A DNA stretch of 64,000 nt from an uncultured Collinsella sp. (GCA_959606035.1 CAUHHB010000001.1:343886-407885), one strand, 5' to 3'. Positions 12,422 to 28,999 are shown, counted from the stretch's first letter. The notes: generated from the letters alone by a model not told the origin. Numbers and translations are program-made.

Positions 12422-14036
12422 GGCTGTCTATATCGGAAATGGCGCAGAGTCCTATATTGAGGATAGGTTAACTGATGGCACCAACGTCATCTATAGTCTC
12501 GATAATAACCGTGGGAAAACAGTCTTGATGCAGGGTGCGATGTATGCTCTCGGTGCAATACCGACGTTTCCTGAGCGCTTCCCTTATAAGGAGTACATTT
12601 ATATCGTTGACCTTGATATCGACGGCAATGAGGTGTCTGTTCTGCGAAGCCGAAATACTTTTGCTGTTAAGACATCTGATAGTCTGAGCCTTTTCGATAG
12701 CGAGGCGGATTACTCTCGATACTGGAGTGAGAATTTCAGACGTTTGCCGAGCATCGTTAAAAACGGGCGATTGACGTCAGTTGGCCTTCAGCTCTATACG
12801 CAGATGGCGTTTATCGGACAAGATGATATTTCATCCGCAAAGATAACTGCTGGTCAGTTTAATAAGGATGATTTCACTGAGATGCTTTATGCCATTGCGG
12901 GGTTTGACGGGAGGGAACTTGATTCGGCCGAGGAGATTGCGCTCAAACGCCGAAGAGATGAACTGAAGGGGCTAATTAAATCGTTGGCCAAAGAAGCATC
13001 TGCGTTAAACGCGCGAGGTACGGCGCTGTCCGCAATTAGCGCAACAACTGACGCGCGTGACATGCAAGAGTTCCTAAAAGAACTTGATTCCGCACGTGCC
13101 GAGGTTACCGATTTAAGGAAGACGCGCAGTCGTTATCTGGCTCGTTTGACCAAGAATCAAATAGTTCTCGACGAGCTTAATTCATTGAGACGCGAAGTAA
13201 AATCGGGTAAGCTCGTGTGCCTAAAATGCGGCAGCGTCTCAGTCGGATATCAGATGGCCGACTCGGATGTTATTTTCGATGTCACATCTCCTGACATGAG
13301 AACTCAAATTATCAATACACTTAAGGAGCGCATCTATGCAATCGAGGCAGACCTCGATGCCCTGGAACGCAATCTGCGGAAGTCGCAGAATCGCTTGAGC
13401 GGTCTTCTTTCCAAAAATGATGAATTTAGCCTGATGGATGTTGTTGCATGCAAAGATGAATATCTAAATGAACAGGAAATAGATCAAAAAATGCAGGAGG
13501 CTCAAAGGGAACTGGATGACGTTAAGGATAAGCTCGAATCAGACAGAGTTCTGACAAGTGAAATCGCAAAACTGAGAAAAGAGTTTATGGACGACCTTCT
13601 TGGAAAGATGAATCTGGCAAGAAGGGCAATCTCGGATAATACTGAGGAATCTTCTTACGAAAGTTTGTTCAGCACCAAAGCAAACGTTTATTCGGGGAGC
13701 GACGGCACCATCTATTTTGCCGCTAGGACCTTTGCGATTGCTTCCAAGATCGATCACGGCATGCCAATAATGATTGATTCGTTCAGGGCCGACGATCTTT
13801 CTTCCGACCGCGAAGACCGGCTTTTGGATCTCCTGGGTAAACTTGACAATCAGATTATCCTAACAACGACGATTAAACGCGAAGAAAGTGCCGGCCCCGA
13901 TGCGTCAAAGTACGAGAGAGACCCGCGCGTCTATGCTATTAACTATTCGAACCATGAAATCAATAGGATAATGAGTGATGTCTATAATGATCGTTTTGCC
14001 GAAAAGGCGGCAGACTTCGGATTGGTTCTTAGATAG
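12408..14036 (+). CDS. SMC/RecF/RecN-like ABC ATPase with central coiled coil and a degenerate Walker B / H-loop
   Basis: N-terminal IKIKAVYIGNGAESY...NVIYSLDNNRGKTVLMQGAMYALG is an SMC-head-like strand plus a Walker A variant (LDNNRGKT). The long coiled-coil-type middle is rich in E/K/R/L. C-terminal YSGSDGTIYFAARTFAIAS (signature-like), PIMIDSF (Walker B Asp followed by Ser instead of Glu) and NQIILTTT (H-loop without His). TTG start is 9 nt after a strong RBS TAAGGAGGGG. Confidence 0.6.
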   Translation: MIKIKAVYIGNGAESYIEDRLTDGTNVIYSLDNNRGKTVLMQGAMYALGAIPTFPERFPYKEYIYIVDLDIDGNEVSVLRSRNTFAVKTSDSLSLFDSEADYSRYWSENFRRLPSIVKNGRLTSVGLQLYTQMAFIGQDDISSAKITAGQFNKDDFTEMLYAIAGFDGRELDSAEEIALKRRRDELKGLIKSLAKEASALNARGTALSAISATTDARDMQEFLKELDSARAEVTDLRKTRSRYLARLTKNQIVLDELNSLRREVKSGKLVCLKCGSVSVGYQMADSDVIFDVTSPDMRTQIINTLKERIYAIEADLDALERNLRKSQNRLSGLLSKNDEFSLMDVVACKDEYLNEQEIDQKMQEAQRELDDVKDKLESDRVLTSEIAKLRKEFMDDLLGKMNLARRAISDNTEESSYESLFSTKANVYSGSDGTIYFAARTFAIASKIDHGMPIMIDSFRADDLSSDREDRLLDLLGKLDNQIILTTTIKREESAGPDASKYERDPRVYAINYSNHEINRIMSDVYNDRFAEKAADFGLVLR

Positions 14037-14561
14037 AAGCCCTCTATTTTATGTCTATTGTTCGTGTCACGCGAGACCTGTTGATTGCGATATTGTGTAT
14101 GGCGCCGGAGCCGATATGGGCTCCGGCACCCTTTTGTCGCTGGTGGGTGATCGATTCTAGCCACCGTATCTTGTAGCTAGAAATGAATTGTTACGACGAC
14201 CCAGGGCGAAGCTATAAAGCGTGGTCGTCAAATTAGTTCTAATCAGCACTCTGAGCTAATCACCCATCGTCCCGATGGCAGAATCCGCGCAAAGGATTCC
14301 CATGGGCACGATCCCTTCCCGCCGAGAGGATAGGGGCTTGACGCAATTGCGGCTGCGGGCATGGATTAGCGTGTCCGCAGCCGCAAACGCCTGCCGGAAG
14401 CATGCGGCAAATTCTGGAACCTCCGAGCACAACGGCTTTTCCGAATAAAGGATCCGCAGGTAGAAACATTGTGGCATTCCGGAGCGCTCGGCACGCCAGG
14501 GATTTGCCGCATACTTCCGAGTTTTGGGCCTCGTACCCTTTGCTCCAGATGCAGCAAACAC

Positions 14562-14589
14562 TTGATTGATGCTATTTAAGGTCTATAAT
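14562..14589 (+). promoter_or_regulatory. sigma-70-like promoter (TTGATT-16nt-TATAAT) in front of the second AAA ATPase/RloB operon
   Basis: Near-consensus -35/-10 hexamers with a 16-nt spacer, read in the sequence ~55 nt upstream of the proposed start. Confidence 0.35.
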
Positions 14590-14643
14590 CAAATAAAAAA
14601 TCTGAAATATCTTTTCAAAACAATGAAAGGAATTTTGAGGACG

Positions 14644-15861
14644 ATGCTTTGCCAGTTTACCTTCAGGAACTATAGATCCTATCGCGACGAAACTGAGCTT
14701 TCCATGCAGGCAACATCTATGAGGGAGTTCGAGCGCTCCCTTATAGAGTGTCCTGACGGGCAGAGTTTCCTTCCGGTGGCTGCGGTTTATGGGCCTAACG
14801 CTGGCGGCAAGTCCAACCTGCTCGAGGCTCTTGACTATATTCGTTCGGCGGTGGCAAGGCCGATCAGATTGCTGTCTGCCAGCACTGATGCGCCAGAGGG
14901 TAACCGTCCTTCGATACCCCGTTGCTCTGCGTTTGAGTTCGATGACGTGTCTGCTGCCGAGCCCACCGAGTTCGAGCTCTACTATCGCGCGGGTGAGCAC
15001 GAGTACCGCTATGCCCTGTCCGTGCATGCGGACGAGATCGTGTCCGAAGGCCTGTGGCGGCGAAAATTGGGAGCGTCACGCACGGCGATGCTGTTCGAGC
15101 GTGAGGGCGCAGAGGTTGAACTCGGCCCCACGCTGCGTAAGCTCGTGACGGCTGCGAGATTCAACCCGAGACTGCCGTACCTGTCGTTTCTCTGCATCAA
15201 CTTTGACGCGCCGGTGGTCAAGGAAGCTGCCAGCTGGTTTCTTGACGGGGTGTTCCTGAACTATAACAGCTCCTATCTGGAGCAGATGCTCGAGCAATTG
15301 CTCGACGAGGATGACTCACCCGACGTCACGCGTTTTTTGCGCGCCGTTGATGTGCGTATTGATGGCTTCAGAGTGGAGAGGGCGCCGGAGTGGCGCGGCC
15401 AGCGCGTCTTCGTGAGGCACAAGGTGAGCGGCAAGGCGTACGAGCTGCGTTTATCCGAGGAATCTGCCGGAACCCAGAAGCTCATGGGGTTGGCTGCGTA
15501 TCTGATGACAGCGCTTGAGCGTGGTGGCACCGTTGTGGTAGACGAGCTCGACGCCAAACTGCACCCGAAGCTTCTTCGCTATGTGATTCTGCTGTTTAAG
15601 GATCCTGGGGTCAACAAGAGTGGCGCGCAGCTCATCTTCTCGTCCCAGGATGTTTCAACCATGCGAAACGATGTGTTCCGCCGTGACGAGATATGGTTCG
15701 CTGCGCGCGGCGAGGGGGAGGCGAGCCAACTGTGGTCTCTCGCCGACATCCACGAGGCAAACGGTAATCTGGTAAGCAAGAACGCGGCTTTCGACAAGCA
15801 ATACCTGTCCGGTCGCTACGGCGCCGATCCGTATCTCACCCGCATCGAGGAGTGGGATTAG
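14644..15861 (+). CDS. AAA_21-type ATPase (AbiLi / RloA-like), paralog of 6259..7674
   Basis: Start MLCQFTFRNYRSYRD parallels MLIRFSFKNFRSVGED of the first ATPase. Walker A VYGPNAGGKSN. C-terminal VVVDELDAKLHP...FRRDEIWFAARGEGE...KQYLSGRYGADPYL is shared with the first ATPase. The ORF-track start 14566 would lie inside the promoter, so start 14644 (or 14625) is preferred. Confidence 0.8.
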   Translation: MLCQFTFRNYRSYRDETELSMQATSMREFERSLIECPDGQSFLPVAAVYGPNAGGKSNLLEALDYIRSAVARPIRLLSASTDAPEGNRPSIPRCSAFEFDDVSAAEPTEFELYYRAGEHEYRYALSVHADEIVSEGLWRRKLGASRTAMLFEREGAEVELGPTLRKLVTAARFNPRLPYLSFLCINFDAPVVKEAASWFLDGVFLNYNSSYLEQMLEQLLDEDDSPDVTRFLRAVDVRIDGFRVERAPEWRGQRVFVRHKVSGKAYELRLSEESAGTQKLMGLAAYLMTALERGGTVVVDELDAKLHPKLLRYVILLFKDPGVNKSGAQLIFSSQDVSTMRNDVFRRDEIWFAARGEGEASQLWSLADIHEANGNLVSKNAAFDKQYLSGRYGADPYLTRIEEWD

Positions 15862-15862
15862 C

Positions 15863-16531
15863 ATGGTGGCGAAGAAGTCGAAGGGCTGGCGTAGCGGCAA
15901 ACGAGAGGGCCGCTCGCGCATGGTTCAGATGACGCGTCATCTTGTAGTGAGCGAGGGCAAGGAGACCGAGCCTCGCTACTTTGAGGGTGTGCGTGCGGCG
16001 TTGGGTGCGGCGAACGAGCGTAAGGTTGCCATTGTCGTTAAGGGGACCGGCAAACATACACTTGACCTACTTGACTTTGCCGTCGAACACTGCCGCTATG
16101 CGCCCGAGACATTCGACCATGTGTGGCTCGTGTATGACAAGGATGACTTTCCTGCGTCCGACTTTGACGCGATGGAGCGCAAATGCGACGAGCTCTCCGA
16201 TGGTTCGAGGACCTTCCATGCGTTGTGGTCGAACCCCTGCTTCGAGCTGTGGCCTCTTCTGCACTTTCGCTACACGACCGCGCATATGTCCGCGTCCGAC
16301 TGCCAGCATGCCCTCGCGCAGGAGATGTCGAGAGACCTGGGCATCGAGTACCGCAAGAACTTGGACGGGCTGTTCGAGGTGGTGGACGGCAAACGAGGCG
16401 AGGCATTGCAGCGTGTTGGGCGCCTCGTCACATACCATAGGGGGCTGGGTAACGTTAAGCCATCTGCGCAAAACCCTGCAACTAAGGTGGGCGAAATTTT
16501 CGATGTAATCGGGCCGTATCTGGCTGGCTAG
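15863..16531 (+). CDS. RloB-like (AbiLii-type, TOPRIM-like) protein, paralog of 5556..6284
   Basis: LVVSEGKETEPRYF, VWLVYDKDDF and ALWSNPCFELWPLLHF are the hallmark RloB motifs. Starts 2 nt after the ATPase stop. Confidence 0.75.
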   Translation: MVAKKSKGWRSGKREGRSRMVQMTRHLVVSEGKETEPRYFEGVRAALGAANERKVAIVVKGTGKHTLDLLDFAVEHCRYAPETFDHVWLVYDKDDFPASDFDAMERKCDELSDGSRTFHALWSNPCFELWPLLHFRYTTAHMSASDCQHALAQEMSRDLGIEYRKNLDGLFEVVDGKRGEALQRVGRLVTYHRGLGNVKPSAQNPATKVGEIFDVIGPYLAG

Positions 16532-16877
16532 TCGAGTCTGTGGATTGGCTTTCCGGTTAGGGCGATTGGCGGATTGTGATGCGCGATTGCAAATCCGGTG
16601 CGTAGGAGAAGTGCGGAGAAAAATCGAAACTCGCCGAGCATAGCCCGATTTCAGGCAACAAAACCGCAGGTCGCCGGAGCTCAAAACCGGGGCCTGGTCA
16701 GCAGGTCTCGGTTTTTCACCCCACTTCCGAATTGGTCGCTCATTTTGCACTCTCGAAGTCCCCACATCCTCTAAAAAAGTTCTTAAAACAGCCTTAAAGG
16801 CGCTCTGGCTCGCGTTGACAGCGTAAAATACGCATGTTTGACTATGACTAAAGTGGATTTTAGGGGAGGGGTGCGCC

Positions 16878-19016
16878 ATGGAGGTGCTGGTTGTTGGCAA
16901 CACCGCATATGTTGACGATGACTTTTGTGCCAAGGCGTTCCCCGGGGACCACGTTAAGGTCGTCGCTGCCGCAGAAGCGCGCCGCGATGAGTCGTCGCCC
17001 CATGCCTCGTGGAAAGAACTGCTCCAGCACTTGGAGCAGGCCTATGAGTTCGACCGCGTGGTCTACCTTTCTAATTACCTTACCCCGCATATCGATAGCG
17101 TGGGCGATATCGAGCTGCTGCGTTCGGTCTTTCGCGCGTGCATGGGTCGCCGGATCCAGCTGTTGTATATAGCAGGTCCCGCAGGTGCCGAGGGTGCCGC
17201 CGATGCCGCGGGGCGAACGGGCAAGGGCATTATCGCGCACGCAGCCAACGACCTGTGCCGCTACTACGCTGCTCGCGAGGGCGTTCAGACCAAGATCCTG
17301 CGCGTGCCCTTCCTGTACACTGCCTCCGCCGCGCTGGAAGATCCGTTTTTGGTGCCGTTGTTCGATGCGTGCTCAACCGGATCGGTTGCTCTGCAGGGCG
17401 CGGAGGATGCGGCGTTTCCCCTGCTGTGCGCCGAGGAACTCGCGGTGCTGATTCGCCGCATCTTTGATAGCTGGGATGCCTCTTTTGAGACGCTCGACGT
17501 TGCCGATGCCTTCCATCACACGGCGGGTGAAGTGGGCGAGGCCCTTAAGGCGCTGTTCCCCGGCCTTGCCGTTGCCTATGGTGATTCTGCCGGCTACGCC
17601 CTGCCCGCCAGCGACGTCGCTCGCGTTCGCTATGGCTGGTTTCAGCGCTACGACTTGCTGCGCGATCTTTCGACCATTCAGGCGCGTTGGGATGCTGGTC
17701 GCGCAAAGAAGGTCAACCCCTTGCGCGCCGCCATCGACCGCATCCAGATGCGCACGCAGCTTATTAAATGCCTGGAGACGGGCGTTGCCTGGGTTCTGTT
17801 CGAGGTGCTGGAGCATCTGTTCTCACAATCGGCCCAGCTCAACGTGCTCGATTATCGCCTGCTCTACGTGGTACTGATCGGCACGCTGTATGGCTTGGAC
17901 TTTGGCCTGGTTGCGGCGCTGCTGGCGTCGGTGGGTTTGGTCGCGAGTTGCTTTACTCAGTACGGCTATACATTCCAGGGCCTGTTCTATGAGCCGTCCA
18001 ACTGGCTGCCGTTTATTGCGTACTTTGTGGTTGGCGCCGTGTGCGGCTATGTGCAGCTGCGCAACAGCGAAGCCATTAGGGCGGAGCGCGATCAAAACGA
18101 GCTCGTGCGCAACCGCAATACGTTCCTTACGCAGCTCTACCACGACGCGATCGAGGACAAGCGCGCGTACAGGCGCCAGATCGTGGGTCGCCACGACAGC
18201 TTTGGCAAGATCTTTGCCGTGACGCAGGAGCTCGACGTGCTCAACCCACGCGACATCTATCGCAAGTGCTGCGAGCTTCTGGGCGAGATTCTCGAGAACG
18301 ATTCGGTGGCGATCTACCATGTTTCTGGCGGGGCATTTGCACGCCTGGTGGCGGCAAGTCCCGCGATTGCCGAAGATGCCGCACGCTCGCTCACGCTTGA
18401 GCAGCTTGCACCTCTTTTGGGCGACGGGGGTCGTTCGAACCTGTTGGTGAACCGCGAGCTGACGCCGGGGCTTCCCATGTTTGGATACACGATCGAGCGC
18501 GACGGGGCACCCGCCGTGTTGATCTTTGTGCGTAGTGCGGCCGAAAACCAAATGACCCTCTATTATCAAAATCTGTTCCGTATCTTGTGCGGGCTGGTCG
18601 AAAGCGCGCTGGGCCGTGCCTTTGACTATGAGGCGGTGGCGCAGGATAAACGCTGCGTTGACGGCACTTGCGTGCTCAAGCAGGCGGCCTTTGGCCAAGA
18701 GCTTGCGGCGGAGCAGGCGCTGGCAGATAGCAAGATGGGGAGTTTTTTGCTCCTGCGCGTGGTACCGGGCATGGAGCCTGTCGGCGAGCTGGTGGGCGCA
18801 ATTGGGTCGGCAATCCGCGAGAGCGACGCGGCGGGCTTGGTCGACGGCAACGTGCTCTACCTGCTTTTGCGCCAGGCAAAGGCGTGCGATCTTCCCATTA
18901 TCCGCGAGCGCCTGAGCGCAAAGCAGATTGCGGTGGAGCCCGTCGACGGCGAGGGCATCGTGGAGCTGCTGCAGCACATCTCTTACACCGGTGACGGTGA
19001 GGGGGGTGCCGCTTGA
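16878..19016 (+). CDS. pelD: PelD-like c-di-GMP receptor (membrane protein; GAF + degenerate GGDEF) with an extra N-terminal Rossmann/SDR-like degenerate domain
   Basis: First gene of a pelDEAFG-ordered, translationally coupled operon. Hydrophobic TM block VAWVLFEVLEHLF...VVLIGTLYGLDFGLVAALLASVGLVASCF is followed by a GAF/GGDEF-like soluble region lacking the GG(D/E)EF motif. N-terminal ~230 aa (VLVVGNTAYV...) is Rossmann-like without a GxxGxxG. Confidence 0.55.
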   Translation: MEVLVVGNTAYVDDDFCAKAFPGDHVKVVAAAEARRDESSPHASWKELLQHLEQAYEFDRVVYLSNYLTPHIDSVGDIELLRSVFRACMGRRIQLLYIAGPAGAEGAADAAGRTGKGIIAHAANDLCRYYAAREGVQTKILRVPFLYTASAALEDPFLVPLFDACSTGSVALQGAEDAAFPLLCAEELAVLIRRIFDSWDASFETLDVADAFHHTAGEVGEALKALFPGLAVAYGDSAGYALPASDVARVRYGWFQRYDLLRDLSTIQARWDAGRAKKVNPLRAAIDRIQMRTQLIKCLETGVAWVLFEVLEHLFSQSAQLNVLDYRLLYVVLIGTLYGLDFGLVAALLASVGLVASCFTQYGYTFQGLFYEPSNWLPFIAYFVVGAVCGYVQLRNSEAIRAERDQNELVRNRNTFLTQLYHDAIEDKRAYRRQIVGRHDSFGKIFAVTQELDVLNPRDIYRKCCELLGEILENDSVAIYHVSGGAFARLVAASPAIAEDAARSLTLEQLAPLLGDGGRSNLLVNRELTPGLPMFGYTIERDGAPAVLIFVRSAAENQMTLYYQNLFRILCGLVESALGRAFDYEAVAQDKRCVDGTCVLKQAAFGQELAAEQALADSKMGSFLLLRVVPGMEPVGELVGAIGSAIRESDAAGLVDGNVLYLLLRQAKACDLPIIRERLSAKQIAVEPVDGEGIVELLQHISYTGDGEGGAA

Positions 19017-19918
19017 TCTCGCTTGTCGTTGCTGCCGTCTTGCTGCTGATTCATGCGCTGGTTTGCCTGATGCTGTGGACGCTCATGAAGCTGGGCCTGC
19101 TGCCGGTGCGCGGGCACATGCTGGCTGTGATAGTGCTGGTGCCGCTGTGGGGCCCGTTGCTGGTGGTTTTGCTATCGGTCCGCAGCGCGGTGTTTGGCGA
19201 GGGACTGAAAGAGTCTGCGCTGGAGTCGCTGCGCTTCAACGACGACCTGCATCGCAGCATCCTGGTGCACGAACGTGATGCCGATGCAGGCGTAGTGCCG
19301 CTCGAGGAGGCGCTCATCGTCAACGATCCGGCATACCGGCGCCGCCTAATGCTCTCCATGCTCACCGAGGAGCCCGACGCTTACCTGGCGCAGCTGCAGG
19401 CGGCTAAGCTTAACGACGACGTTGAGGTGGCGCACTATGCCGCGACGGCGGTGGCGCAGATCTCCAAGGAGTCCGACCTTAGACTGCAGCAGCTGGAACG
19501 TGCCTTTAAGACGGACCCGAGCGCTCAAAACCTCAACGAATACTGCGATTTTCTTGGTGAATACTTGGGTTCGGGCTTGGCTGAGGGGCGCGTGGCTCAG
19601 ATTCAGCGCCAACAGTACGCGCTCCTGCTTGCGCGTCGCTGTGAGCGCGAGGATACCCTTGAGCTGCGCATTCGATACGCGACGGCGCTGGCCGATGTCG
19701 GACAGATCGACGAGGCACAGGCCGTGACCGACCAGCTGGTGCTCGACGTGCCCGAGGAGCAGGAGGTTTGGATGCTTTGCCTGCGCCTGGCCGTGATGCG
19801 CCGCGACGGTGACGAGGTCCACCGCGTGATCGACGCGATCGACAACCAACATGTGTATTTGAGCGCCGACAACCGCGAAAAGTTGGCGTTTTGGCGCGAC
19901 GGGGAGGAGGCCAGATGA
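19013..19918 (+). CDS. pelE: PelE-like inner-membrane TPR protein
   Basis: Two N-terminal TM helices, then a helical repeat region (AHYAATAVAQ..., LARRCERED...) consistent with TPR. Position between pelD and pelA. Overlaps both neighbours. Confidence 0.55.
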   Translation: MISLVVAAVLLLIHALVCLMLWTLMKLGLLPVRGHMLAVIVLVPLWGPLLVVLLSVRSAVFGEGLKESALESLRFNDDLHRSILVHERDADAGVVPLEEALIVNDPAYRRRLMLSMLTEEPDAYLAQLQAAKLNDDVEVAHYAATAVAQISKESDLRLQQLERAFKTDPSAQNLNEYCDFLGEYLGSGLAEGRVAQIQRQQYALLLARRCEREDTLELRIRYATALADVGQIDEAQAVTDQLVLDVPEEQEVWMLCLRLAVMRRDGDEVHRVIDAIDNQHVYLSADNREKLAFWRDGEEAR

Positions 19919-21795
19919 GCGTGGTGCAACATATCCGCGACCGTGCAGGCCGCTTTCGTTGGATGGGGCTGCTCGTAGTGTGGGCTGTTTTTATCGTCAT
20001 GGCCGCCGTGCTGCTGGTGGAGCGTGCCGGCGTGCAGTACAGTGCGGGCCAGCATAAGCTGGGGATGCTGGCCGCCAACGATGCGGTGCCGGCCTCCTCG
20101 GCAATCTTTGGCCAAAAGCCCACGTGCCTGGTCATTACCGATTCCGATCAAGCTGGCGTCGAGGACGTAAAGGAGCAGTTCGACCAGATCCTGCTCGACA
20201 TGAAGATCGCGCACCGCGACGTGGACCTTGCCCTGGATGGTGCGGATGCCATTCCCTCGCTGACCTCCTTCGATCGCGTGATTTTGCTCATGCCGTCGCT
20301 CGATGGGCTCGGTACGCACCTGAGCGACATTATGAGTTGGGTGAGTGCCGGCGGTTCGCTTATGCTCGCCATGCCGCCGGATAACTCGAGCTATCTGCAA
20401 GTGATTGCCTCCAAGCTTGGCATTGAATCGGCCGGATATGACTATGTAAAAGCCGAAAGCATTGTGCCGAGCGAGGACTTTATGCTGGGCGGGGGAGAGC
20501 GCTACGAGCTCTCGGACCCCTTTGATTCGTCGCTTTCGGTATCGCTGCGCGAGACGGCGCGTGATTGGGCTAAGACTGGCGATGCGGGCGCCCCGCTCAT
20601 TTGGTCGAATGACTGCGGTGGCGGGCGCACCGTGGTATGCAATATCGGTATCTATGACAAGGTCATGCGTGGCTTTTACGCCGCGGCGATCAGTCTGCTG
20701 GGTAATACCACGGCCTATCCGGTCATCAACAGCGCCGTGTTCTATTTGGACGACTTTCCCAGCCCCGTGCCCTCGGGCGATGGTACTTATATCAAGCGTG
20801 ACTACGGCCTTTCCATTGCCGATTTTTACACCAAGGTCTGGTGGCCCGATCTGCAAAAGCTCGCGCAAAAATACGGCATTCGCTATACCGGCGTGATGAT
20901 CGAAAACTACGAGGACGCGGTCAACCAGACCGAGCCCGCGCGACAGGCCGATACCACGCAGTTCCGCTACTTTGGTGGCATGCTGCTGCAGATGGGCGGA
21001 GAGCTGGGCTTTCACGGCTACAACCATCAGCCTCTGGCGCTCTGGGACACCGACTACGGCACGCTGTACGTCTACAAGACCTGGAAGAACAAAGAGACGC
21101 TCGTCGCTTCGCTCAACGAACTTATCGCGTTTCAGGACGAGGTCCTGCCCAACGCTCACGGCTCGGTTTACGTACCGCCGTCGAATATCCTTTCGGCCCG
21201 AGCGCGCAAGATTATCGGCGACGACGTTCCGCGAATTAAGACCATTGCCAGTACGTATTTTGAGGATGGCACCGACCTGCCGTACGTGCAGGAGTTTGGC
21301 GTGGCGAGCGATGGCATTGTGGAGCAGCCACGTATTGTCTCGGGCGGCATGGTCGACGATTCCTATATGCGCCTGGCAGCCGTGTCCGAGCTCAACATGC
21401 ACTACGTGAGCACGCACTTTATGCACCCGGACGACCTTTTGGACCCCGATCGCGGAGCCAAGGAGGGCTGGGGGGTCTACAAGGGCGGCCTGGTCGACTT
21501 CCTGGAGTGGCTTACCAAATTCGCGCCCGATCTGCGGCACCAGACGGCGTCGGAGTGCTCCGGTGCCATCCAGCGCTTTTCGTCGGTTACGGTGAGCGTG
21601 GATACCAGCGCGGATGCCTGGGCGCTCAGCCTGGGCAATTTCCACGACGAGGCGTGGCTCATGTTCCGCGCCAATAATGGCGAGCCGGGTGCGGTGACGG
21701 GTGGCGAACTGACGCACCTTACGGGCAGTCTGTATCTGCTCAAGGCCACGGACAAGACGGTGACCATTGCGCGCAAGGAGGGTGGCGATAAATGA
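19915..21795 (+). CDS. pelA: PelA-like polysaccharide deacetylase/hydrolase (membrane-anchored)
   Basis: N-terminal TM anchor WMGLLVVWAVFIVMAAVLLV, then a large soluble domain (…FHGYNHQPLALWDTDYG…) in the pelA position. ATG 19915 overlaps the pelE stop (ATGA) after a GGGGAGGAGG RBS. Confidence 0.5.
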   Translation: MSVVQHIRDRAGRFRWMGLLVVWAVFIVMAAVLLVERAGVQYSAGQHKLGMLAANDAVPASSAIFGQKPTCLVITDSDQAGVEDVKEQFDQILLDMKIAHRDVDLALDGADAIPSLTSFDRVILLMPSLDGLGTHLSDIMSWVSAGGSLMLAMPPDNSSYLQVIASKLGIESAGYDYVKAESIVPSEDFMLGGGERYELSDPFDSSLSVSLRETARDWAKTGDAGAPLIWSNDCGGGRTVVCNIGIYDKVMRGFYAAAISLLGNTTAYPVINSAVFYLDDFPSPVPSGDGTYIKRDYGLSIADFYTKVWWPDLQKLAQKYGIRYTGVMIENYEDAVNQTEPARQADTTQFRYFGGMLLQMGGELGFHGYNHQPLALWDTDYGTLYVYKTWKNKETLVASLNELIAFQDEVLPNAHGSVYVPPSNILSARARKIIGDDVPRIKTIASTYFEDGTDLPYVQEFGVASDGIVEQPRIVSGGMVDDSYMRLAAVSELNMHYVSTHFMHPDDLLDPDRGAKEGWGVYKGGLVDFLEWLTKFAPDLRHQTASECSGAIQRFSSVTVSVDTSADAWALSLGNFHDEAWLMFRANNGEPGAVTGGELTHLTGSLYLLKATDKTVTIARKEGGDK

Positions 21796-23219
21796 GAATC
21801 TGCTTGGTACTCGAGGGTTGCTACCCCTATGTGCACGGCGGCGTATCTACCTGGATGCATGGCTATATCCAGGCCATGCCCGAGCACGAGTTCGTGCTTT
21901 GGGTAATCGGCGCGCATGCTGCCGACCGCGGCAAGTTTGTCTACGAGCTGCCCAGCAACGTGGTCGAGGTGCACGAGGTGTTCCTGGACGATGCCCTGCG
22001 GCTTTCGGGCGAGCAACATGAAGCCAGTTTTAACGACCGTGAGCGCGAGGCGCTACGCCGTCTGGTATCGCTTTCCAATCCGGACTGGGACGTGTTATTC
22101 GATATCTTCCACCGCCGTCGCGTGCATCCGCTATCGTTTTTGCAGAGCCGCACGTTTATGGATATCTTTCGCGACGTGTGCCTGGCCGAGTATCCCTACA
22201 CGCCCTTTGCCGATGCATTTCACACCATGCGCTCCATGTTGCTGCCCGTGCTCTACCTGTTGGGCAGCGAGGTGCCGGTGGCCGATGTGTACCATGCCAT
22301 CTCGACCGGCTACGGCGGCCTGCTCGCCTGTCTGGGCTCGAGCGTTCACCATGCGCCGGTGCTGCTAACCGAACACGGCATCTATACCCGTGAGCGCGAG
22401 GAAGAGATCATTCGCGCCGACTGGGTGGTGCCCTCGTTTAAGGACCGCTGGATTCGCTTTTTCTACCTGCTTTCGGAGGAGATCTACCGCCGCGCCTTCC
22501 GCGTGACCAGCCTATTCCACAACGCCCGCAAGACGCAGATCGATATGGGCTGCGATGCGGACAAATGCCTGGTCATTCCCAACGGCATCCAGTTCGATCG
22601 CTTTAAGGATATTCCCTTAAAGACCGATGACGGCTGGGTGGACATTGGCGCGGTGGTGCGCCTGGCGCCCATCAAGGATGTCAAGACCATGATTTATGCC
22701 TTCTTTGAGCTGCACGAGCGCCTGCCCAAGGTGCGCCTGCACATCATGGGCGGCGTGGACGACGAGGAGTACGGCGCCGAGTGCCACGCGCTGGTCGAAA
22801 CCCTGGGCGTGCGCGACCTGATCTTTACCGGCCGCGTCAACGTGGTCGAGTACATGGAAAAGCTCGACTTTACCATTTTGACGAGCATCTCCGAGGGCCA
22901 GCCGCTCAGCGTGCTGGAGTCGCTTGCAGCGCGCCGTCCCTGCGTGACGACTGAGGTGGGCTGCTGTCGCGAGCTTCTCGAAGGCGCCCCGGGAGACGAC
23001 TTTGGCGTGGCGGGTTTTGTGACGCCGCCCATGTATCGCAAGGGCTTGGCCGATGCCATGGAACGCATGTGCACAAGCCGCGCTCGTCGCATTGAGATGG
23101 GGGAGCGCGGCCAGCGTCGCGTTGCCACGTACTTCTTGCACGAGCAGATGCTTGCCAACTATCGCGCGCTGTACGACGAGACGGCGCGTGCGTTTGACCT
23201 GCCCAGAGAGGGGGAGTAG
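21792..23219 (+). CDS. pelF: PelF glycosyltransferase (GT4 family)
   Basis: N-terminal MRICLVLEGCYPYVHGGVSTWMHGYI is characteristic of PelF. C-terminal GT4 block ...ISEGQPLSVLESLAARRPCVTTEVG. ATGA overlap with pelA. Confidence 0.85.
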   Translation: MRICLVLEGCYPYVHGGVSTWMHGYIQAMPEHEFVLWVIGAHAADRGKFVYELPSNVVEVHEVFLDDALRLSGEQHEASFNDREREALRRLVSLSNPDWDVLFDIFHRRRVHPLSFLQSRTFMDIFRDVCLAEYPYTPFADAFHTMRSMLLPVLYLLGSEVPVADVYHAISTGYGGLLACLGSSVHHAPVLLTEHGIYTREREEEIIRADWVVPSFKDRWIRFFYLLSEEIYRRAFRVTSLFHNARKTQIDMGCDADKCLVIPNGIQFDRFKDIPLKTDDGWVDIGAVVRLAPIKDVKTMIYAFFELHERLPKVRLHIMGGVDDEEYGAECHALVETLGVRDLIFTGRVNVVEYMEKLDFTILTSISEGQPLSVLESLAARRPCVTTEVGCCRELLEGAPGDDFGVAGFVTPPMYRKGLADAMERMCTSRARRIEMGERGQRRVATYFLHEQMLANYRALYDETARAFDLPREGE

Positions 23220-23222
23220 CCG

Positions 23223-24767
23223 GTGGCCGGAATAGGTTTTGAGCTCAAGCGCCTGTTTAGGCGCAAGGGCCTGTTTGCCACGATGCGCGCTTACGGCTAC
23301 GCCGGCATTGTGTGCACGGGCCCCATGCTGCTGGGCGTGCTGCTTCAGGTGGGTATCTTGGTGCTGTGCGGTCTGTGGGGCGTTGGTCGCGCCAACCAGG
23401 ACTTGCTGGTGTGCATGGTGACCTATACGCTGCTGGCCTCGCTTACGCTCACGAGCTTTTTCTCCATGCCGGTCACGCGCTTTTTGGCCGACATGCTTTT
23501 TGCCGAGCGCGAGGAAGAGATCTTGCCCTCGTTTTGGGGCTCCAATGCTGTCATGCTCGTTGCGGGCACGGTGCTCTACGGTGTCTTTCTGCTGTTCTCG
23601 GGCGCCACGCTGCTGCAGGGGCTGCTATGCCTGTGGCTGTTCAACATTATGATCGTCAACTGGAACGGCATGAGCTATCTCACCGCTATTAAGGATTACC
23701 GCGGTATCCTGTGCAGCTTTGCGGCTGCCATTGGCGTGGCGTGCCTGTGCGCCCTGGCCGCGCTGGCGCTGGGACTGCCGCCGGTCGAGGGCCTGTTGGC
23801 GTCAATTGCTCTGGGCTACGGCGTTATGCTCGCCTGCGACGTGGTGCTGCTGTACCGGTATTTTCCGCAGAGCGAACGCAGCCCCTGGCTCTTTTTACGG
23901 TGGCTTGATCAGTTTATGCCGTTGGCGCTCACGGGCTTGTTCACCAACCTGGGCCTCTTTGCGCACTTGGTGATAATTTGGGCCGGTCCCATTGGCGTGC
24001 TGGTCAAGGGCTTGTTTTATGGTGCGCCCTACCACGATGTGCCGGCGCTCATCGCGTTTTTGACGATCCTGGTCACGTCCGTCAACTTTGTGGTCTCAGT
24101 CGAGGTCAACTTTTATCCGCGTTACCGCGACTACTACAGCCTGTTCAACGACGGTGGCGTGGTGGGCGACATTGTGGTGGCCGAGGAGGAAATGCTTGCC
24201 ACGCTCAACCGAGAACTACGGTTTTGTGCGCTCAAGCAGCTGTTTGTGACGGCGGCGGTCATTTCGCTCGAGACCACGGTGCTCTCGGCCCTGCCGCTGG
24301 GCTTTAACAACCTGATGCACGGGTATTTTCGCACGCTGTGCGTGGGCTACGGCCTGTATGCCGTGGGCAACACGATTCTGCTGATCTTGCTGTACTTTAC
24401 CGACTACAAGGGGGCCGTGCTGGCCTCGGGACTGTTTGCCGGTGTGGCCGGGCTGGCGACTGCCGTGTCGTTGCTTTTGCCGCAGCAGTTTTACGGCTTT
24501 GGCTTTTTGTTGGGTGCGGCGGTGTTTTTTATCGTGGCGCTGCTGCGGCTCGATACCTATACCGCCAACTTGCCGTATCGTATCCTGAGTCAGCAGCCCA
24601 TTGTGGCTACTGACAAGACGGGCTGGTTTACACAGCTGGGCCGCTTGCTCGACCGTGCCGAGCAGCGCTATGAGGAAGGTCGCCATAAGGGTGAGCCACA
24701 TGGCGCGTTTGAGCGCGTAGTAGTTCACGTGTATCGCAAGCATTGGGGAGGTTCTGATGACCGATAG
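23223..24767 (+). CDS. pelG: PelG polysaccharide exporter-like polytopic membrane protein
   Basis: N-terminal MAGIGFELKRLFRRKGLFATMRAYGYAGIV is the conserved PelG start. About 12 predicted TM helices. GTG start. Confidence 0.85.
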   Translation: MAGIGFELKRLFRRKGLFATMRAYGYAGIVCTGPMLLGVLLQVGILVLCGLWGVGRANQDLLVCMVTYTLLASLTLTSFFSMPVTRFLADMLFAEREEEILPSFWGSNAVMLVAGTVLYGVFLLFSGATLLQGLLCLWLFNIMIVNWNGMSYLTAIKDYRGILCSFAAAIGVACLCALAALALGLPPVEGLLASIALGYGVMLACDVVLLYRYFPQSERSPWLFLRWLDQFMPLALTGLFTNLGLFAHLVIIWAGPIGVLVKGLFYGAPYHDVPALIAFLTILVTSVNFVVSVEVNFYPRYRDYYSLFNDGGVVGDIVVAEEEMLATLNRELRFCALKQLFVTAAVISLETTVLSALPLGFNNLMHGYFRTLCVGYGLYAVGNTILLILLYFTDYKGAVLASGLFAGVAGLATAVSLLLPQQFYGFGFLLGAAVFFIVALLRLDTYTANLPYRILSQQPIVATDKTGWFTQLGRLLDRAEQRYEEGRHKGEPHGAFERVVVHVYRKHWGGSDDR

Positions 24768-26526
24768 GATGATGTCTCGCCGTCGCTTGTTTGAGGCGGC
24801 TGCCGGTGCGCTGTTGCTTTCGGGCTGCTCGGTGCAGGAAGACTCCTCGACCAAAAAGGTCAAAAAGCAGGACAAGATTAAAAAGGCCGAGTCCTCGGAC
24901 GGTACCAAGCATCTACGCGATAAAGATGAGCTGTACGAGGTCTACGACGACTCGGGTATTGTGACCATGTACCTGACGGTCTCACGCGGCAACAGCTCCG
25001 AGAACACCGACCACAGCTGGGCCGAGATCAATACGTACTCGGTGTATGACTACGCCGACATGGGCGTGACGCGCTATCAGGTTATGGGCCTGCTGCAGGC
25101 GGGCGACGAAGACGGTCCGGTGGCCGGCGAGGTTGGCTATGGCGAGGAAGTGCCCAATGCCACCGTGCAGGTGCGCGGTCAGACATCGAGCATGAACTCG
25201 CAAAAGAATTACAAGGTGGAGCTCAAAAAGGGCAAGGGTACCTGGCGCCAACAGCGTGCGATTGCGCTCAACAAGCACATGGGCGAGGGTATGCGTTTTC
25301 GCAACAAGATGGCCTACGACCTTATCCGCGGGATTCCCCAGATGATGGGCCTTCGCACACAGTTTGTGCATCTGTGGGTGTGCGACCAGACCGAAAAGTC
25401 CAACGATACCTTTGAGGACTACGGCCTGTTTACGCAGGTGGAGCAGCTCAACAAGACGGCGCTTAAGGCACATGGCCTGGATAAGAGCGGGCACCTGTAC
25501 AAGGTGAACAGCTTTGATTTCCATCGCTACGAGGACACCATTAAGCTTGCCGATGATCCCGACTACAACCAGGCAAACTTTGAGGGCATGCTCGAGATCA
25601 AGGGCGATTCGGACCACACCAAGCTCATCGAGATGCTCGATGCGCTCAATGATGAATCGCAAAAGATCGATGATGTGCTCGATACCTACTTTGATACCGA
25701 GAATCTGGTCTATTGGCTGGCGTTTCAGATCCTGACGGGCAACTGCGATACGCAGAACCGTAACTGCTATCTGTACAGCCCGCTTAACTCCAAGGTCTGG
25801 TACATCCTGGATTGGGATAACGACGGCATGCTGCGTAAGCTGGAGCTTTCTCTTACCGGGTTTTCGGACTACGCGAGCTGGGAGCGCGGTGCAAGCAACT
25901 ACTGGGGCAACGTGCTGTTTAACCGCGCGTTGCGCAGCAAGTCGTTCCGCAGCGAACTCGACCGTGCCGTTAAGGGCTTGCGCTCGTATTTGACCGAGAC
26001 TCGCCTGACCAAGATGATCAAGCACTACTGCGAGGTGACTGAATCCCTGGTCTTTGCTTCGCCCGATATCGACAATCTGCCTGTCACCAAGGACCAATAC
26101 GAGCAGATCGCCGCGGCGATTCCCTCCGAGATCGAGGAGAACTACAAGAGCTTTCGCGAGAGTTTTAAAAAGCCCATGCCGTTCTACATCGGCGTGCCGC
26201 AGATCGATAACGGTAAGCTGCGCATTAACTGGGATGCGTCCTACGACTTTGAGGCGCGCGACATTCGCTACACCGTAGAGCTTGCGCGCGACTATGCCAT
26301 AAGCGACGTGGTCTTTAAGGCCGAGGACGTGCTGCTTCCCCAGGTGACCTGCGATGCGCCCGATGCCGGCCAGTATTTTGTGCGCGTGCGTGCCACCAAC
26401 TCCGACGGTTATACGCAAGATGCGTTTGACTACTATGTGACCGACGACGGCAAGCACTACGGCATGAAGTGTTTTTACGTGCAAGACGGCGGTAAGGTCG
26501 TGGAGGACACGTATGAGGAGGGCTAG
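24757..26526 (+). CDS. CotH-family (atypical kinase fold) lipoprotein
   Basis: Lipoprotein signal MSRRRLFEAAAGALLLSGCS. CotH-like core ...NYKVELKKGKGTWRQQRAIALNKHMGEGMRFRNKMAYDLIRGI...QFVHLWV...GLFTQVE. Confidence 0.7.
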   Translation: MTDRMMSRRRLFEAAAGALLLSGCSVQEDSSTKKVKKQDKIKKAESSDGTKHLRDKDELYEVYDDSGIVTMYLTVSRGNSSENTDHSWAEINTYSVYDYADMGVTRYQVMGLLQAGDEDGPVAGEVGYGEEVPNATVQVRGQTSSMNSQKNYKVELKKGKGTWRQQRAIALNKHMGEGMRFRNKMAYDLIRGIPQMMGLRTQFVHLWVCDQTEKSNDTFEDYGLFTQVEQLNKTALKAHGLDKSGHLYKVNSFDFHRYEDTIKLADDPDYNQANFEGMLEIKGDSDHTKLIEMLDALNDESQKIDDVLDTYFDTENLVYWLAFQILTGNCDTQNRNCYLYSPLNSKVWYILDWDNDGMLRKLELSLTGFSDYASWERGASNYWGNVLFNRALRSKSFRSELDRAVKGLRSYLTETRLTKMIKHYCEVTESLVFASPDIDNLPVTKDQYEQIAAAIPSEIEENYKSFRESFKKPMPFYIGVPQIDNGKLRINWDASYDFEARDIRYTVELARDYAISDVVFKAEDVLLPQVTCDAPDAGQYFVRVRATNSDGYTQDAFDYYVTDDGKHYGMKCFYVQDGGKVVEDTYEEG

Positions 26527-27304
26527 CGCGCTGCTTGAGCGCTTGGCGGCTCCGCCTGTCCGTACCACGCAGGAGCGTTACCGCCACGAGCTCAAATATC
26601 TCATTAACGAGGGCGAGCGCGCCGCGCTTGTCTGTCGCATGGCGCCGGTGTTTAAGCTGGACAAGCATGCGCGCTCGGGTGGTTACACCATTCGCAGCCT
26701 GTACTTTGACGACTACTGCAACTCGGCCTACGAGGAAAAAGACGCCGGTATTCTCATGCGCAAAAAGTATCGCGTGCGTATCTATAACGGCAGCGACAAG
26801 GTGATTAAGCTCGAGCGCAAAAAGAAGTACGGCAGCTGGATCTACAAGGAGGACGCGCCGCTTACGCGCGGCGAGTTTGAGCAGATCCTGGCTGGCGACT
26901 ACGACTTTTTGCTGAGGAGCCCGCACCTACTCTGCCGCGAGTTCTACATCGAGTGCATCTGCAACATGATGCGCCCACGGACCATTGTGGACTACGAGCG
27001 CGAGCCGTGGGTGATGGATGAGGGCACCGTGCGCATTACGTTTGACATGAACGTGCGTGCCGCGGTGGGAAGCTTCGATATCTTTGACGCGACGCTGCCC
27101 GCGTTGCCGGTCCTGGAGCCCGGTAAGCTGGTGATGGAGGTCAAGTTTACGGAGTTTTGTCCGCAGCTGGTGCGCGATATGGTGCCGCCGGGCGCGGCCG
27201 AATTCACGGCGGTCTCTAAGTACTGCCTGTGTTATGACAAGACCGCCTACCTGCGCGGATTTAATTATTGGGAATCGGATTTTGAGAACCGAGGGGATAT
27301 TTAG
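26513..27304 (+). CDS. VTC-domain (polyphosphate polymerase-like) protein
   Basis: RYRHELKYLINEGERAALVCRMAP...YTIRSLYFDDYCNSAYEEK...KYRVRIYNG...KLERKKKYGSWIYKE is the VTC/CYTH-like family pattern. Overlaps the CotH gene end. Confidence 0.7.
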   Translation: MRRASALLERLAAPPVRTTQERYRHELKYLINEGERAALVCRMAPVFKLDKHARSGGYTIRSLYFDDYCNSAYEEKDAGILMRKKYRVRIYNGSDKVIKLERKKKYGSWIYKEDAPLTRGEFEQILAGDYDFLLRSPHLLCREFYIECICNMMRPRTIVDYEREPWVMDEGTVRITFDMNVRAAVGSFDIFDATLPALPVLEPGKLVMEVKFTEFCPQLVRDMVPPGAAEFTAVSKYCLCYDKTAYLRGFNYWESDFENRGDI

Positions 27305-27307
27305 ACC

Positions 27308-27973
27308 ATGAGCACCAGGGACTTTTTTAAGAACTCCGTCTTGGAGGCGTTTGGCCAGGTCGACCCTGCCAAGATCGGCCTGTCGCTGCTCGTGGCGCTC
27401 GCCATGGGCATCCTGATCTATTACGTGTACAAGCGCTTTTTTACCGGCGTGGTGTATTCGCGCAGCTTTGCCGTGACGCTCGTGGGCATGTGCGTGCTCA
27501 CCTGCATGGTCACGCTCGCGATCTCGACCAACGTGGTCATCTCGCTCGGTATGGTCGGTGCTCTGTCCATCGTCCGCTATCGTACGGCGGTCAAGGACCC
27601 GCTCGACCTGCTGTATCTGTTTTGGTCCATTACCACGGGCATTACGGCGGGAGCCGGTATGTATGCGCTCGTGGGGCTTACTGCCGTGGTAATTGTGGTG
27701 ATGATCGCGGGGTTCGCTTCGCACCAGGACAAGGCGCGCGTGTACATGATGGTGATCCATTATACGGGCCAGACCACGGGCGACGATATCGTGCGCGCCT
27801 TTGGTCGCACCAAGTTCACGTTGAAGTCCAAGACCATGCGCGGTGACAAGGTGGAGATGGCCGTCGAGGTGTTCTCGGACGGCGTTGACATGCCCTACGC
27901 CGATGCGATTCGCGCGCTCGACGGCGTTGAGGACCTGACGCTCATCCAGTACAACGGCGAATATCACGGCTAG
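27308..27973 (+). CDS. DUF4956-family membrane protein
   Basis: Four TM helices. Conserved ...MVGALSIVRYRTAVKDPLDLLYLFWSITTGITAGAGMY. Known genomic partner of CotH and VTC-domain genes. Confidence 0.65.
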   Translation: MSTRDFFKNSVLEAFGQVDPAKIGLSLLVALAMGILIYYVYKRFFTGVVYSRSFAVTLVGMCVLTCMVTLAISTNVVISLGMVGALSIVRYRTAVKDPLDLLYLFWSITTGITAGAGMYALVGLTAVVIVVMIAGFASHQDKARVYMMVIHYTGQTTGDDIVRAFGRTKFTLKSKTMRGDKVEMAVEVFSDGVDMPYADAIRALDGVEDLTLIQYNGEYHG

Positions 27974-28006
27974 TTTGGTTCAGTTTTATTTAAGGGGCGG
28001 TGTCGC

Positions 28007-28999
28007 TTGGACGTGCAGCAGCTTGAAGAGACCTGGGCCGTGAGGGCCGGCGCACGTGAAACGTGTCTTGTTGCGGCCTCGCATGTGCCGGCGGCGCTGT
28101 CGATGCTGGGGATTGTGCAGCCCGGCGATCGCTTGGTGGCCTTTGCGGACGACTTTGCCGATGCATTTGCCTGCGGCTTTGATGGCTGCGATGTTGCGCT
28201 GGTGGGGGAGCCCGCGGCTGCGGCGTTTGCTGCTGCGTCCGAAGGCTTTGATGCTTCGTTTGATGCCGAGGGGCCGCACCTGTGGTGGTTCGTCAACTCC
28301 ATCGGCGGGTTTGGTCTGCGTGTGCCCGACCTTCGCGCTCTGGGCCGCGCCGCTCGTGAGCCGCATGCGCTGCTCGTGGTGGATAACACCGTGGCGGGCG
28401 TCTTTGGCTGTGATCCGTTACGCTTGGGCGCCGTTCTGTCGCTCGAGGCGCTCGATCGCGTGTGTGCCGGCGTGGCGCCGCGCAAGCTCGTCGCCGCTTC
28501 GGTGGCGCGCTCGCGGCTTAAGCGGCATCGCGTGGATGCCGCCGCCGAGTGTGCGTATGCGCTTCTTGCGGATTGCGGTGCGTCTGCACTCGACCTTTCT
28601 GTTAATGAGGCTTGCATGCTGGAGCGAGGGCTGTCTTCGCTCGACGCTCGCATGCAGGCCCACTTCGACCGCGCCCGTGCGCTGGCCGAGTATCTGGCCG
28701 CCAACGAGATGGTACGCAACGTGCGCTATCCCGGGCTGACCTCGCATCCCGACCATGCCATCGCGACCGGCATCCTGGAGCACGGTTTTGGCCCGGCAGT
28801 AGAGTTTGACCTTATCGAGCGAAGTGCGGGTGAGCTGTTCGACACATTGCCGGGGGAGTTTCGCACATCACCCGCCGGCGGCTCAACAACGCGCCTTTCG
28901 GCCCCGCGCGGTAAGCGGGGGAGCGCCATCCGCCTCTTCGCCGGCACCGACGACCCTCTGCAGGTGGCTGCCACTCTCGATAACGCCCTTCGCAAGTAG
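28007..28999 (+). CDS. divergent Cys/Met-metabolism PLP-dependent enzyme family homolog lacking the PLP-binding lysine (possible pseudoenzyme or decaying gene)
   Basis: HALLVVDNTVAGVFGCDPLRLGAVLSLEALDRV aligns to the xxVVDNTFATPxxxxPLxxGADIVxHSATKYL block, but the SATK lysine is replaced (SLEAL). VRYPGLTSHPDHAIATGILEHGFGPAVEFDL matches the VxYPGLxSHPxHxLA...GgxxSF block. Extremely Ala-rich and high GC. Confidence 0.45.
   Translation: MDVQQLEETWAVRAGARETCLVAASHVPAALSMLGIVQPGDRLVAFADDFADAFACGFDGCDVALVGEPAAAAFAAASEGFDASFDAEGPHLWWFVNSIGGFGLRVPDLRALGRAAREPHALLVVDNTVAGVFGCDPLRLGAVLSLEALDRVCAGVAPRKLVAASVARSRLKRHRVDAAAECAYALLADCGASALDLSVNEACMLERGLSSLDARMQAHFDRARALAEYLAANEMVRNVRYPGLTSHPDHAIATGILEHGFGPAVEFDLIERSAGELFDTLPGEFRTSPAGGSTTRLSAPRGKRGSAIRLFAGTDDPLQVAATLDNALRK

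Follow-up and report, generated by a model that had tools for sequence, protein, structure and literature searches.

The last three genes of a pel operon on a Collinsella chromosome, encoding a CotH-type lipoprotein, a VTC-domain protein and a DUF4956 membrane protein, are the subject of this analysis. The window, a stretch of 64,000 nucleotides (nt) from an uncultured Collinsella sp. (GCA_959606035.1, CAUHHB010000001.1:343886-407885), carries this trio at positions 24757-27973, at the end of a Gram-positive-type operon for the exopolysaccharide Pel. Tentatively, and with less than even confidence, we read the trio as a membrane-spanning phosphate-transfer module at the site where Pel leaves the cell. 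New here are the fusions of PelG with CotH in four Bacillales genera, the trios free of pel, and a VTC-DUF4956 core with a swappable partner.

The connection of these genes to pel has been published. Whitfield et al. (2020; PMC7112168) described a second accessory gene group, consisting of genes for a CotH-like protein, a poly-phosphate polymerase (PPP), DUF4956 and DUF4832, which directly adjoins pelDEA(DA)FG in streptococci, clostridia and bifidobacteria, the latter with a diguanylate cyclase/phosphodiesterase (DGC/PDE) gene in place of DUF4832. Where the group is present, PelD tends to carry an additional, degenerate domain of the epimerase-like type (PMC7112168). The homologues in Streptococcus intermedius, SIR_1594, SIR_1593 and SIR_1592, were each deleted in a study in mBio from 2025 (PMC12345266). 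Deletion of cotH gave less Pel and less aggregation, deletion of DUF4956 gave more Pel, yet less aggregation, and deletion of VTC gave no phenotype; the authors proposed a role in phosphate metabolism for the accessory set. An earlier note on the window, made from the DNA alone, held that a link of this kind was not described, which is wrong, and as the operon architecture was already published, the novelty of that original finding is low. Collinsella is not named in PMC7112168 or PMC12345266, and the literature search found no relevant paper joining Collinsella with pelF or pelG. With the window, Collinsella supplies one more case of the pel-cotH-PPP-DUF4956 architecture already published, with the fourth accessory gene missing. 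It has in common with the published set the contiguity of the trio with pel, the extended degenerate epimerase-like N-terminus of PelD, and a CotH predicted to be secreted and to carry a C-terminal beta-sandwich. The window operon stops at DUF4956, whereas streptococci and clostridia continue with DUF4832 and bifidobacteria with DGC/PDE.

Eight genes on the plus strand, from 16878 to 27973, were found in a six-frame listing of open reading frames (ORFs) in the order pelD-E-A(DA)-F-G-cotH-VTC-DUF4956, with no gap larger than 3 nt. The identities given in the earlier note were borne out by Pfam matches. The exporter gene pelG (23223-24767, plus strand, as are all three genes that follow) matched PelG over residues 1-454 with E = 1.4e-135; cotH (24757-26526), for an extracytoplasmic kinase-fold lipoprotein, matched CotH with E = 6e-66; the VTC-domain gene (26513-27304), for a soluble triphosphate-tunnel protein, matched VTC with E = 1e-30; and the DUF4956 gene (27308-27973), for a membrane protein, matched DUF4956 with E = 2.2e-11. 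The ATG of cotH at 24757 lies within the stop region of pelG (TAG at 24765-24767), giving an overlap of 11 nt on the plus strand (24757-24767), the VTC start at 26513 stands 14 nt before the end of cotH, and DUF4956 begins 3 nt past the VTC stop. All three distances were read directly from the sequence as the earlier note had them, and the two overlaps and the 3-nt gap agree with its proposed geometry of translational coupling. A purine-rich motif resembling a Shine-Dalgarno sequence precedes the starts of cotH, VTC and DUF4956, with GGGAGG 5 nt upstream of the cotH ATG and GGAGG upstream of the VTC ATG. A separate promoter or terminator between pelG and cotH, which the earlier note had named as evidence that would speak against it, was not found by a consensus scan, itself weak evidence, and the same scan gave nothing resembling a promoter close to any of the three junctions. 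The sole terminator-like match near a junction lay within the VTC gene, at its 3' end, and was a weak stem of 6 bp; the total of such matches was not above that in shuffled sequence, and no convincing terminator was seen after DUF4956 (z = -0.5). Judged by their spacing, the eight genes, packed without gaps, are almost certainly one transcript.

The arrangement was stable throughout the genus. A scan with a VTC alignment, with one genome per species, gave 80 loci with VTC identities of 95-98%, and all named loci belonged to Collinsella or uncultured Collinsella; as the scan returned Collinsella only, its scope is the genus and not the wider distribution. All eight genes in the order of the window were present in 53/53 other Collinsella loci with enough upstream flank. 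The spacing between genes was equally constant, being -11 nt for pelG-cotH in 73/73 loci, -14 nt for cotH-VTC in 80/80 and +3 nt for VTC-DUF4956 in 76/79. Since gene order and spacings are conserved across Collinsella loci, the arrangement is not a product of chance. The same eight-gene layout was found in a more distant relative (locus L172), and the trio is contiguous with pel also in loci from Coriobacteriia, Clostridia-type genomes and Bacillales. The closest VTC cluster holds more than 25,000 member sequences. The earlier note had asked for co-occurrence of the trio with pel in other genomes, which the Collinsella, Clostridia-type and Bacillales loci provide, and it was right in regarding the trio as a conserved, functionally uncharacterised unit.

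In pel operons of Bacillales the VTC homologues were about 44% identical to the window VTC. In Solibacillus, Paenibacillus spongiae, Sporosarcina and Psychrobacillus, PelG and CotH were encoded as one ORF of 1032-1037 amino acids (aa) (locus L084, 5160-8261; L085, 6886-9999; L086, 6888-10001; L170, 2901-5999). In these proteins the last PelG helix is followed by a basic linker and then by one more hydrophobic helix, with LLSAC, ILTGC or LLCGC at its end, before the CotH domain begins. This 13th helix of the fusion is the lipoprotein signal of CotH, retained, and with its lipobox-like end it places the CotH domain of the fusions outside the cell. From the fusions, CotH would be expected to act where Pel leaves the cell. 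No paper mentioning a PelG-CotH fusion was found in the literature search. A comparable geometry has been modelled for Bacillus cereus, where PelA(DA) docks through its membrane helix onto the C-terminal helices of PelG and in this way encounters the polymer on its way out (JBC 2026, PMC13254593). Both cases place an extracytoplasmic enzyme at the polymer exit, but the docked enzyme in B. cereus is a de-N-acetylase, and the contact between CotH and PelG is a putative one. The PelG of the window has a cytoplasmic tail of about 60 aa past the Pfam domain according to a hydropathy scan. Solibacillus encodes a second, free CotH lipoprotein as well (L084, 8319-10001).

The window CotH was called a lipoprotein, in agreement with the earlier note, from the lipobox in its N-terminus MTDRMMSRRRLFEAAAGALLLSGC; the signal peptide is encoded at 24757-24828 on the plus strand, its lipobox is LSGC, and its RRRLF motif may be of the twin-arginine type. 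Homologues had either a lipobox or an N-terminal membrane anchor in every context examined, and CotH is accordingly extracytoplasmic in all of them. Residues ~475-589 form a beta-sandwich-like C-terminal region, for which weak Ig-like matches were the sole matches obtained. A sequence search of PDB gave CotH of B. cereus (5JD9) alone, with E = 1e-5. Across 25 CotH sequences from trios, residues N329, D331, N336 and W353-D354 were near-invariant, with no more than one exception, and they were matched in the B. cereus CotH fragment, with D331 and D354 of the window aligning with D224 and D247. From the same 23-residue spacing we equate D331/D354 with D228/D251 of Bacillus subtilis CotH, in which the D228Q variant is catalytically dead (PMC7821199); the identities of the catalytic residues were thus taken from the alignment and from the citation of D228 in that paper. 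The catalytic motifs are intact, and kinase activity is predicted. Bacillus CotH (5JD9) and the window protein share the Pfam family (PF08757) and the aligned Asp motifs NxD...N and WD. Bacillus CotH works in the mother cell, where it uses ATP and acts on the coat proteins CotB and CotG, unlike the window CotH, which is a lipoprotein outside a non-sporulating bacterium.

These properties of CotH also suit the hypothesis of Whitfield et al. (2020), by which CotH would be an extracytoplasmic Ser/Thr protein kinase that regulates Pel through the machinery or a surface protein with the use of extracellular ATP, while VTC and DUF4956 would be a separate matter. The characterised CotH proteins are protein kinases (PMC7821199) and the catalytic motifs are kept in the window. 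Deletion of cotH in S. intermedius lowers Pel while deletion of VTC does nothing (PMC12345266), and the accessory genes track altered regulatory domains of PelD (PMC7112168). What this hypothesis leaves unexplained is the company that VTC and DUF4956 keep with CotH in pel as well as non-pel settings; it names no source of ATP outside the cell, and the fusion with PelG speaks for a role at the polymer exit no less than for regulation. We take it as a serious alternative, but consider it rather unlikely.

The non-pel settings are several. Clostridium cochlearium, [Clostridium] methylpentosum and Tissierella each carry a two-component system followed by VTC-DUF4956-CotH (L087, 7731-13153; L088, 6127-13875; L171, 5631-11365), and no pel genes were present within 8-10 kb on either side of these three trios. 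Metagenomes were scanned with a non-pel DUF4956 as anchor, and the 80 most similar loci (L090-L169) were annotated with profiles from the loci in hand; the denominators below count those loci whose flanks were long enough for a call. VTC was immediately upstream of DUF4956 in 58/58 loci, CotH immediately downstream of it in 40/50, and a two-component system within 4 kb upstream in 13/30. A pel-family match was obtained in 0/80 loci, so trios without pel are common, though this number is not an unbiased frequency, as the loci had been chosen by likeness to a non-pel DUF4956. Genomes of the Clostridia type carry free trios, and so do metagenomes from gut, rumen and fermenter, often beside an OmpR-type two-component system. 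An assignment of these two-component systems to the phosphate regulon was tried and could not be made: PhoB/PhoR models were among the top matches but all under cutoff. The arrangement had been stated not to occur outside pel loci (PMC12345266), and this statement of the mBio study is contradicted by the free trios. The order of genes differs between the two settings, being VTC-DUF4956-CotH in the free cassettes versus CotH-VTC-DUF4956 in pel loci. The order of the free-standing trio is also that of the NELoc-2 cluster of Clostridium perfringens (PMC2879425), with VTC, a 'tubulin/FtsZ-like' membrane protein of ~225 aa, and CotH; from its size and location the 'tubulin-like' protein is probably DUF4956. 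Unlike the trio of the window, NELoc-2 has no pel link.

Ten of the metagenome loci lacked CotH, and in 7/7 of these that were checked a Cthe_2159 (PF14262) beta-helix carbohydrate-binding protein was encoded downstream (L111, 8738-10786; L148, 1359-2954; L156, 3381-5279; L162, 9445-11571; L160, 7210-8997; L120, 4229-6583; L134, 3349-5280). The genes for VTC and DUF4956 always come as a pair, adjacent in all loci judged, and with Cthe_2159 standing in the place of CotH they look like a core that can take different partners on the outside. The existence of free-standing cassettes suggests that the chemistry of the trio is probably general and not dedicated to the modification of Pel. Of the functional tie between the trio and Pel proposed in the earlier note, the tie itself holds, through contiguity, the PelG-CotH fusions and the published deletion phenotypes; specificity for pel does not.

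A constant core with a variable outside partner (CotH in 40/50, Cthe_2159 in the 7/7 checked of 10 without it) could also mean that VTC-DUF4956 exports or displays polyphosphate, a polyanion that would hold cationic, partly de-acetylated Pel at the surface, while CotH or Cthe_2159 anchors or organises it outside, with no kinase role on Pel. Pel is cationic and pairs with anionic polymers, as with P. aeruginosa Pel and extracellular DNA. The cotH mutant of S. intermedius has less cell-associated Pel, but the VTC deletion was without an aggregation phenotype (PMC12345266). The near-invariant catalytic residues of CotH argue for enzyme activity, and no sign was seen of DUF4956 forming a channel. 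We hold this explanation to be improbable.

The VTC protein could be connected to an enzyme of known structure. A profile of 49 diverse bacterial VTC homologues, with the window protein left out, matched yeast Vtc4 (3G3Q) with E = 3e-12; a narrow VTC profile run against PDB had given nothing but chance matches to PBP2x, and the broader homologue profile was needed. In the profile alignment, the Lys of the bacterial RHELKY motif coincides with the Vtc4 residue that we take for the catalytic K200, and the KYRIRIY motif with the hRLRwY motif of Vtc4, which we take to hold R264/R266. The tunnel residues R24, E26, K28, R87, R89, E101, K103, R174, D178, E209, K211, S235 and K236, those aligned with Vtc4 in this way among them, were invariant in 63 sequences, the window protein included. 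An AlphaFold2 model of the protein had a predicted local distance difference test score (pLDDT) of 88.7, and its best fold match in PDB by Foldseek was Vtc4 (3G3R; E = 3.5e-14, TM-score 0.61), ahead of ygiF and CYTH enzymes. By these comparisons the protein is most like the catalytic domain of the yeast Vtc4 polyphosphate polymerase, and polymerase activity is predicted. The literature search found no assay of polyphosphate synthesis by a bacterial VTC member. No SPX domain, membrane segment or signal peptide was seen in the sequence, and since no obvious signal peptide or hydrophobic segment is present, the protein is most likely cytoplasmic. The yeast VTC complex (Vtc4/Vtc3/Vtc1; 3G3Q, 7YTJ, 8I6V) has the same Vtc4-type tunnel fold, whose Lys, Arg and Glu are kept in the window VTC, and the window VTC is likewise always encoded beside a small multi-helix membrane protein. 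The yeast complex differs in having SPX, while the catalytic subunit in the window has neither SPX nor a membrane segment, and in importing into the vacuole, while by analogy the direction here would be export from the cell. DUF4956-VTC fusions were sought as Rosetta-stone evidence and the candidates rejected, as VTC homologues of 360-620 aa merely carry disordered, K/P/Q-rich N-terminal extensions without a Pfam domain. Such extensions, of 130-400 aa and rich in Lys, Pro and Gln, are found in many VTC homologues (P0141, P0152, P0176, P0266). A further candidate, the Collinsella protein P0024 (358 aa), was ruled out as well: it owes its fused form to an in-frame deletion, with the junction at residue ~191 of VTC and residue ~54 of DUF4956, and probably reflects either an allele that has been inactivated or an error of assembly.

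According to alignments, the DUF4956 protein has 4-5 hydrophobic helices and a basic loop, RYRTAVKDP, that is invariant; for its small alpha/beta domain at the C-terminus, a low-confidence model gave the secondary structure beta-alpha-beta-beta-alpha-beta. By the positive-inside rule, the basic loop and the C-terminal domain would be cytoplasmic. No match to DUF202 (Vtc1-type) or SPX was obtained in any protein of the trio by Pfam. DUF4956 has been described, from structure prediction, as an MgtC-type membrane domain joined to an ACT domain (PMC12345266). On that description, VTC and DUF4956 could tune the intracellular phosphate or ATP balance in an MgtC-like manner for the energy and precursors of Pel, with polyphosphate perhaps staying in the cytoplasm (PMC12345266) and CotH acting independently. 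The secondary structure of the C-terminal domain agrees with this, as do the two-component systems by the free trios, nearest to PhoB/PhoR if under threshold. The similarity to MgtC was, however, not significant (Pfam E = 1.9; 9.3 bits versus a cutoff of 31.4), and the lasting linkage to an extracytoplasmic partner is left unexplained. We rate this explanation as low as that of a displayed polyanion. That the adjacency has no meaning, an unrelated cassette having come to be packed behind the pel genes, would fit with the occurrence of the trio independently of pel, but is highly improbable and largely refuted already by the same contiguity across distant lineages, the PelG-CotH fusions and the published Pel mutant phenotypes.

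The phosphate-transfer module that we favour would work as follows. The trio would be a self-contained unit, taken up by a pel lineage and joined to the exporter of Pel, and CotH would be a kinase-fold enzyme on the outer face of the membrane beside PelG; both steps are proposed with medium confidence. There CotH would act on, that is phosphorylate, the emerging Pel or the outer part of the Pel machinery. With lower confidence we suggest that soluble VTC makes polyphosphate from ATP at the basic cytoplasmic face of DUF4956, that DUF4956 anchors VTC and may hand its product, or a signal, across the membrane, and that polyphosphate is the phosphate source for the outside kinase where ATP is scarce. 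The working mode would be like that of the yeast VTC complex, with polyphosphate synthesis coupled to translocation. In its most explicit form, in which VTC-DUF4956 would be the bacterial counterpart of the VTC complex that feeds polyphosphate outward as donor or substrate of CotH, and Pel would be phosphorylated or decorated with polyphosphate upon leaving PelG, the proposal is unlikely.

Several points weigh against the phosphate-transfer module. We know of no biochemical activity for any bacterial VTC-domain or DUF4956 protein, of no enzyme of protein-kinase fold that takes polyphosphate as donor, and of no report of phosphate on Pel. Both B. cereus and P. aeruginosa make Pel without the trio genes. 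No sequence similarity of DUF4956 to Vtc1 was detected, and a DUF4956 profile gave no match among PDB chains, the Vtc1 chains of 7YTJ and 8I6V included. The single-sequence structure model of DUF4956 was unusable (pLDDT 52) and was left out of the fold search. Co-transcription is itself deduced from gene spacing. Finally, the null result for VTC in S. intermedius and the opposite effects of cotH and DUF4956 on Pel are a misfit with a linear pathway from VTC over DUF4956 to CotH (PMC12345266).

The remaining genes of the operon, all on the plus strand, are those of a Gram-positive-type pel locus. A region of 346 nt without a long ORF (16532-16877, plus strand) precedes pelD, with GGGGAGGGG just 5' of the pelD ATG; we place the candidate operon promoter here, as it is the sole gap big enough, although a sigma-70 scan called none there. 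The pelD-like gene (16878-19016) encodes 712 aa with a degenerate N-terminus resembling short-chain dehydrogenases/reductases and epimerases, a membrane region and a C-terminal regulatory part with RESD (RxxD-like). The protein aligned over its full length with PelD of Paenibacillus by BLASTP (E = 2e-47), residues 54-256 aligning with the Epimerase-positive N-terminus of the latter, while Pfam gave no Epimerase match for the N-terminus of the window protein. The sole Pfam domain detected was a marginal DUF4118 at residues 303-397 (28.2 bits versus a cutoff of 28.4). On this comparison, the window PelD fits the published PelD type with an added degenerate epimerase-like N-terminal domain. The RESD motif (window 18800-18860, residues ~645-660) aligned with RETD of Paenibacillus PelD, at the position where a binding motif of the inhibitory-site type for cyclic di-GMP is expected. 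As the motif is kept, Pel of Collinsella may still be under cyclic di-GMP regulation. The pelE-like gene (19013-19918; 301 aa) had a weak TPR_19 match under the Pfam cutoff (E = 1.2e-4), and its location between pelD and pelA(DA) is kept in all related loci. The pelA(DA) gene, of the extracellular Pel de-N-acetylase type (19891-21795, start maybe at 19915), matched Pfam DUF2194 with E = 1.7e-168, and its homologue called in locus L001 had 626 aa; the function is that published for the B. cereus homologue (PMC13254593). A deacetylase-only PelA type is thus present between pelE and pelF, as it is, with the same family, in all related pel loci. PelA(DA) of B. cereus is, by synteny, probably a DUF2194 member. 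The pelF gene (21792-23219), for a glycosyltransferase of family 4, matched the NCBIfam PelF equivalog with 323 bits versus a cutoff of 100 as well as Pfam DUF3492 and Glycos_transf_1.

In Collinsella the operon ends at DUF4956, followed by a gene for a Cys/Met enzyme dependent on pyridoxal phosphate (PLP), and a fourth accessory gene (DUF4832 or DGC/PDE) after DUF4956 was absent in the window and in the other Collinsella loci. DUF4832 was present in the pel loci L083 and L089. At L089 (3781-6713) pelA(DA) is broken into two ORFs, as is pelF, while cotH-VTC-DUF4956-DUF4832 is intact, which may be decay of pel with the accessory genes kept, or sequencing error. At L083, a pel locus of the Clostridia type, DUF4832 is followed (12809-18169) by genes for an ABC transporter, an aminotransferase and a HAD hydrolase which resemble a set for 2-aminoethylphosphonate utilisation; its position beside a phosphate theme may be coincidental. 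The PLP-enzyme ORF of the window (28007-28999), directly after DUF4956, matched just positions 57-306 of a profile of 381 positions. Most Collinsella species have a sucrose cassette of 4.5-5 kb (LacI, EIIBC of a phosphotransferase system, and GH32) between DUF4956 and the PLP-enzyme gene (L020, 11682-15937), which is missing from the window (27974-28006) and from L003 and L011. Directly upstream of the pel operon, the window contains a defence island (5556-16531) with AbiLi/AbiLii pairs at 6259-7674 and 5556-6284 (minus strand) and at 14566-15861 and 15863-16531 (plus strand), a PDC-M22A/B (Lamassu LmuB-like) pair at 11372-14036 and a TIR-like ORF at 9932-10738. The GC content falls to 45-47% at 10-14 kb of the window, and the AbiL pair adjoining pelD was absent from the other Collinsella loci.

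In the human gut Collinsella is a genus of very high abundance, and a Pel operon conserved in it may matter for aggregation and colonisation. Beyond the genus, the invariant VTC-DUF4956 pair with its swappable outside partner points to a general envelope phosphate module, the function of which becomes easier to test with the fusions and the free-standing cassettes at hand. If true, a CotH fed by polyphosphate would be a general bacterial way to power phosphorylation outside the cell.

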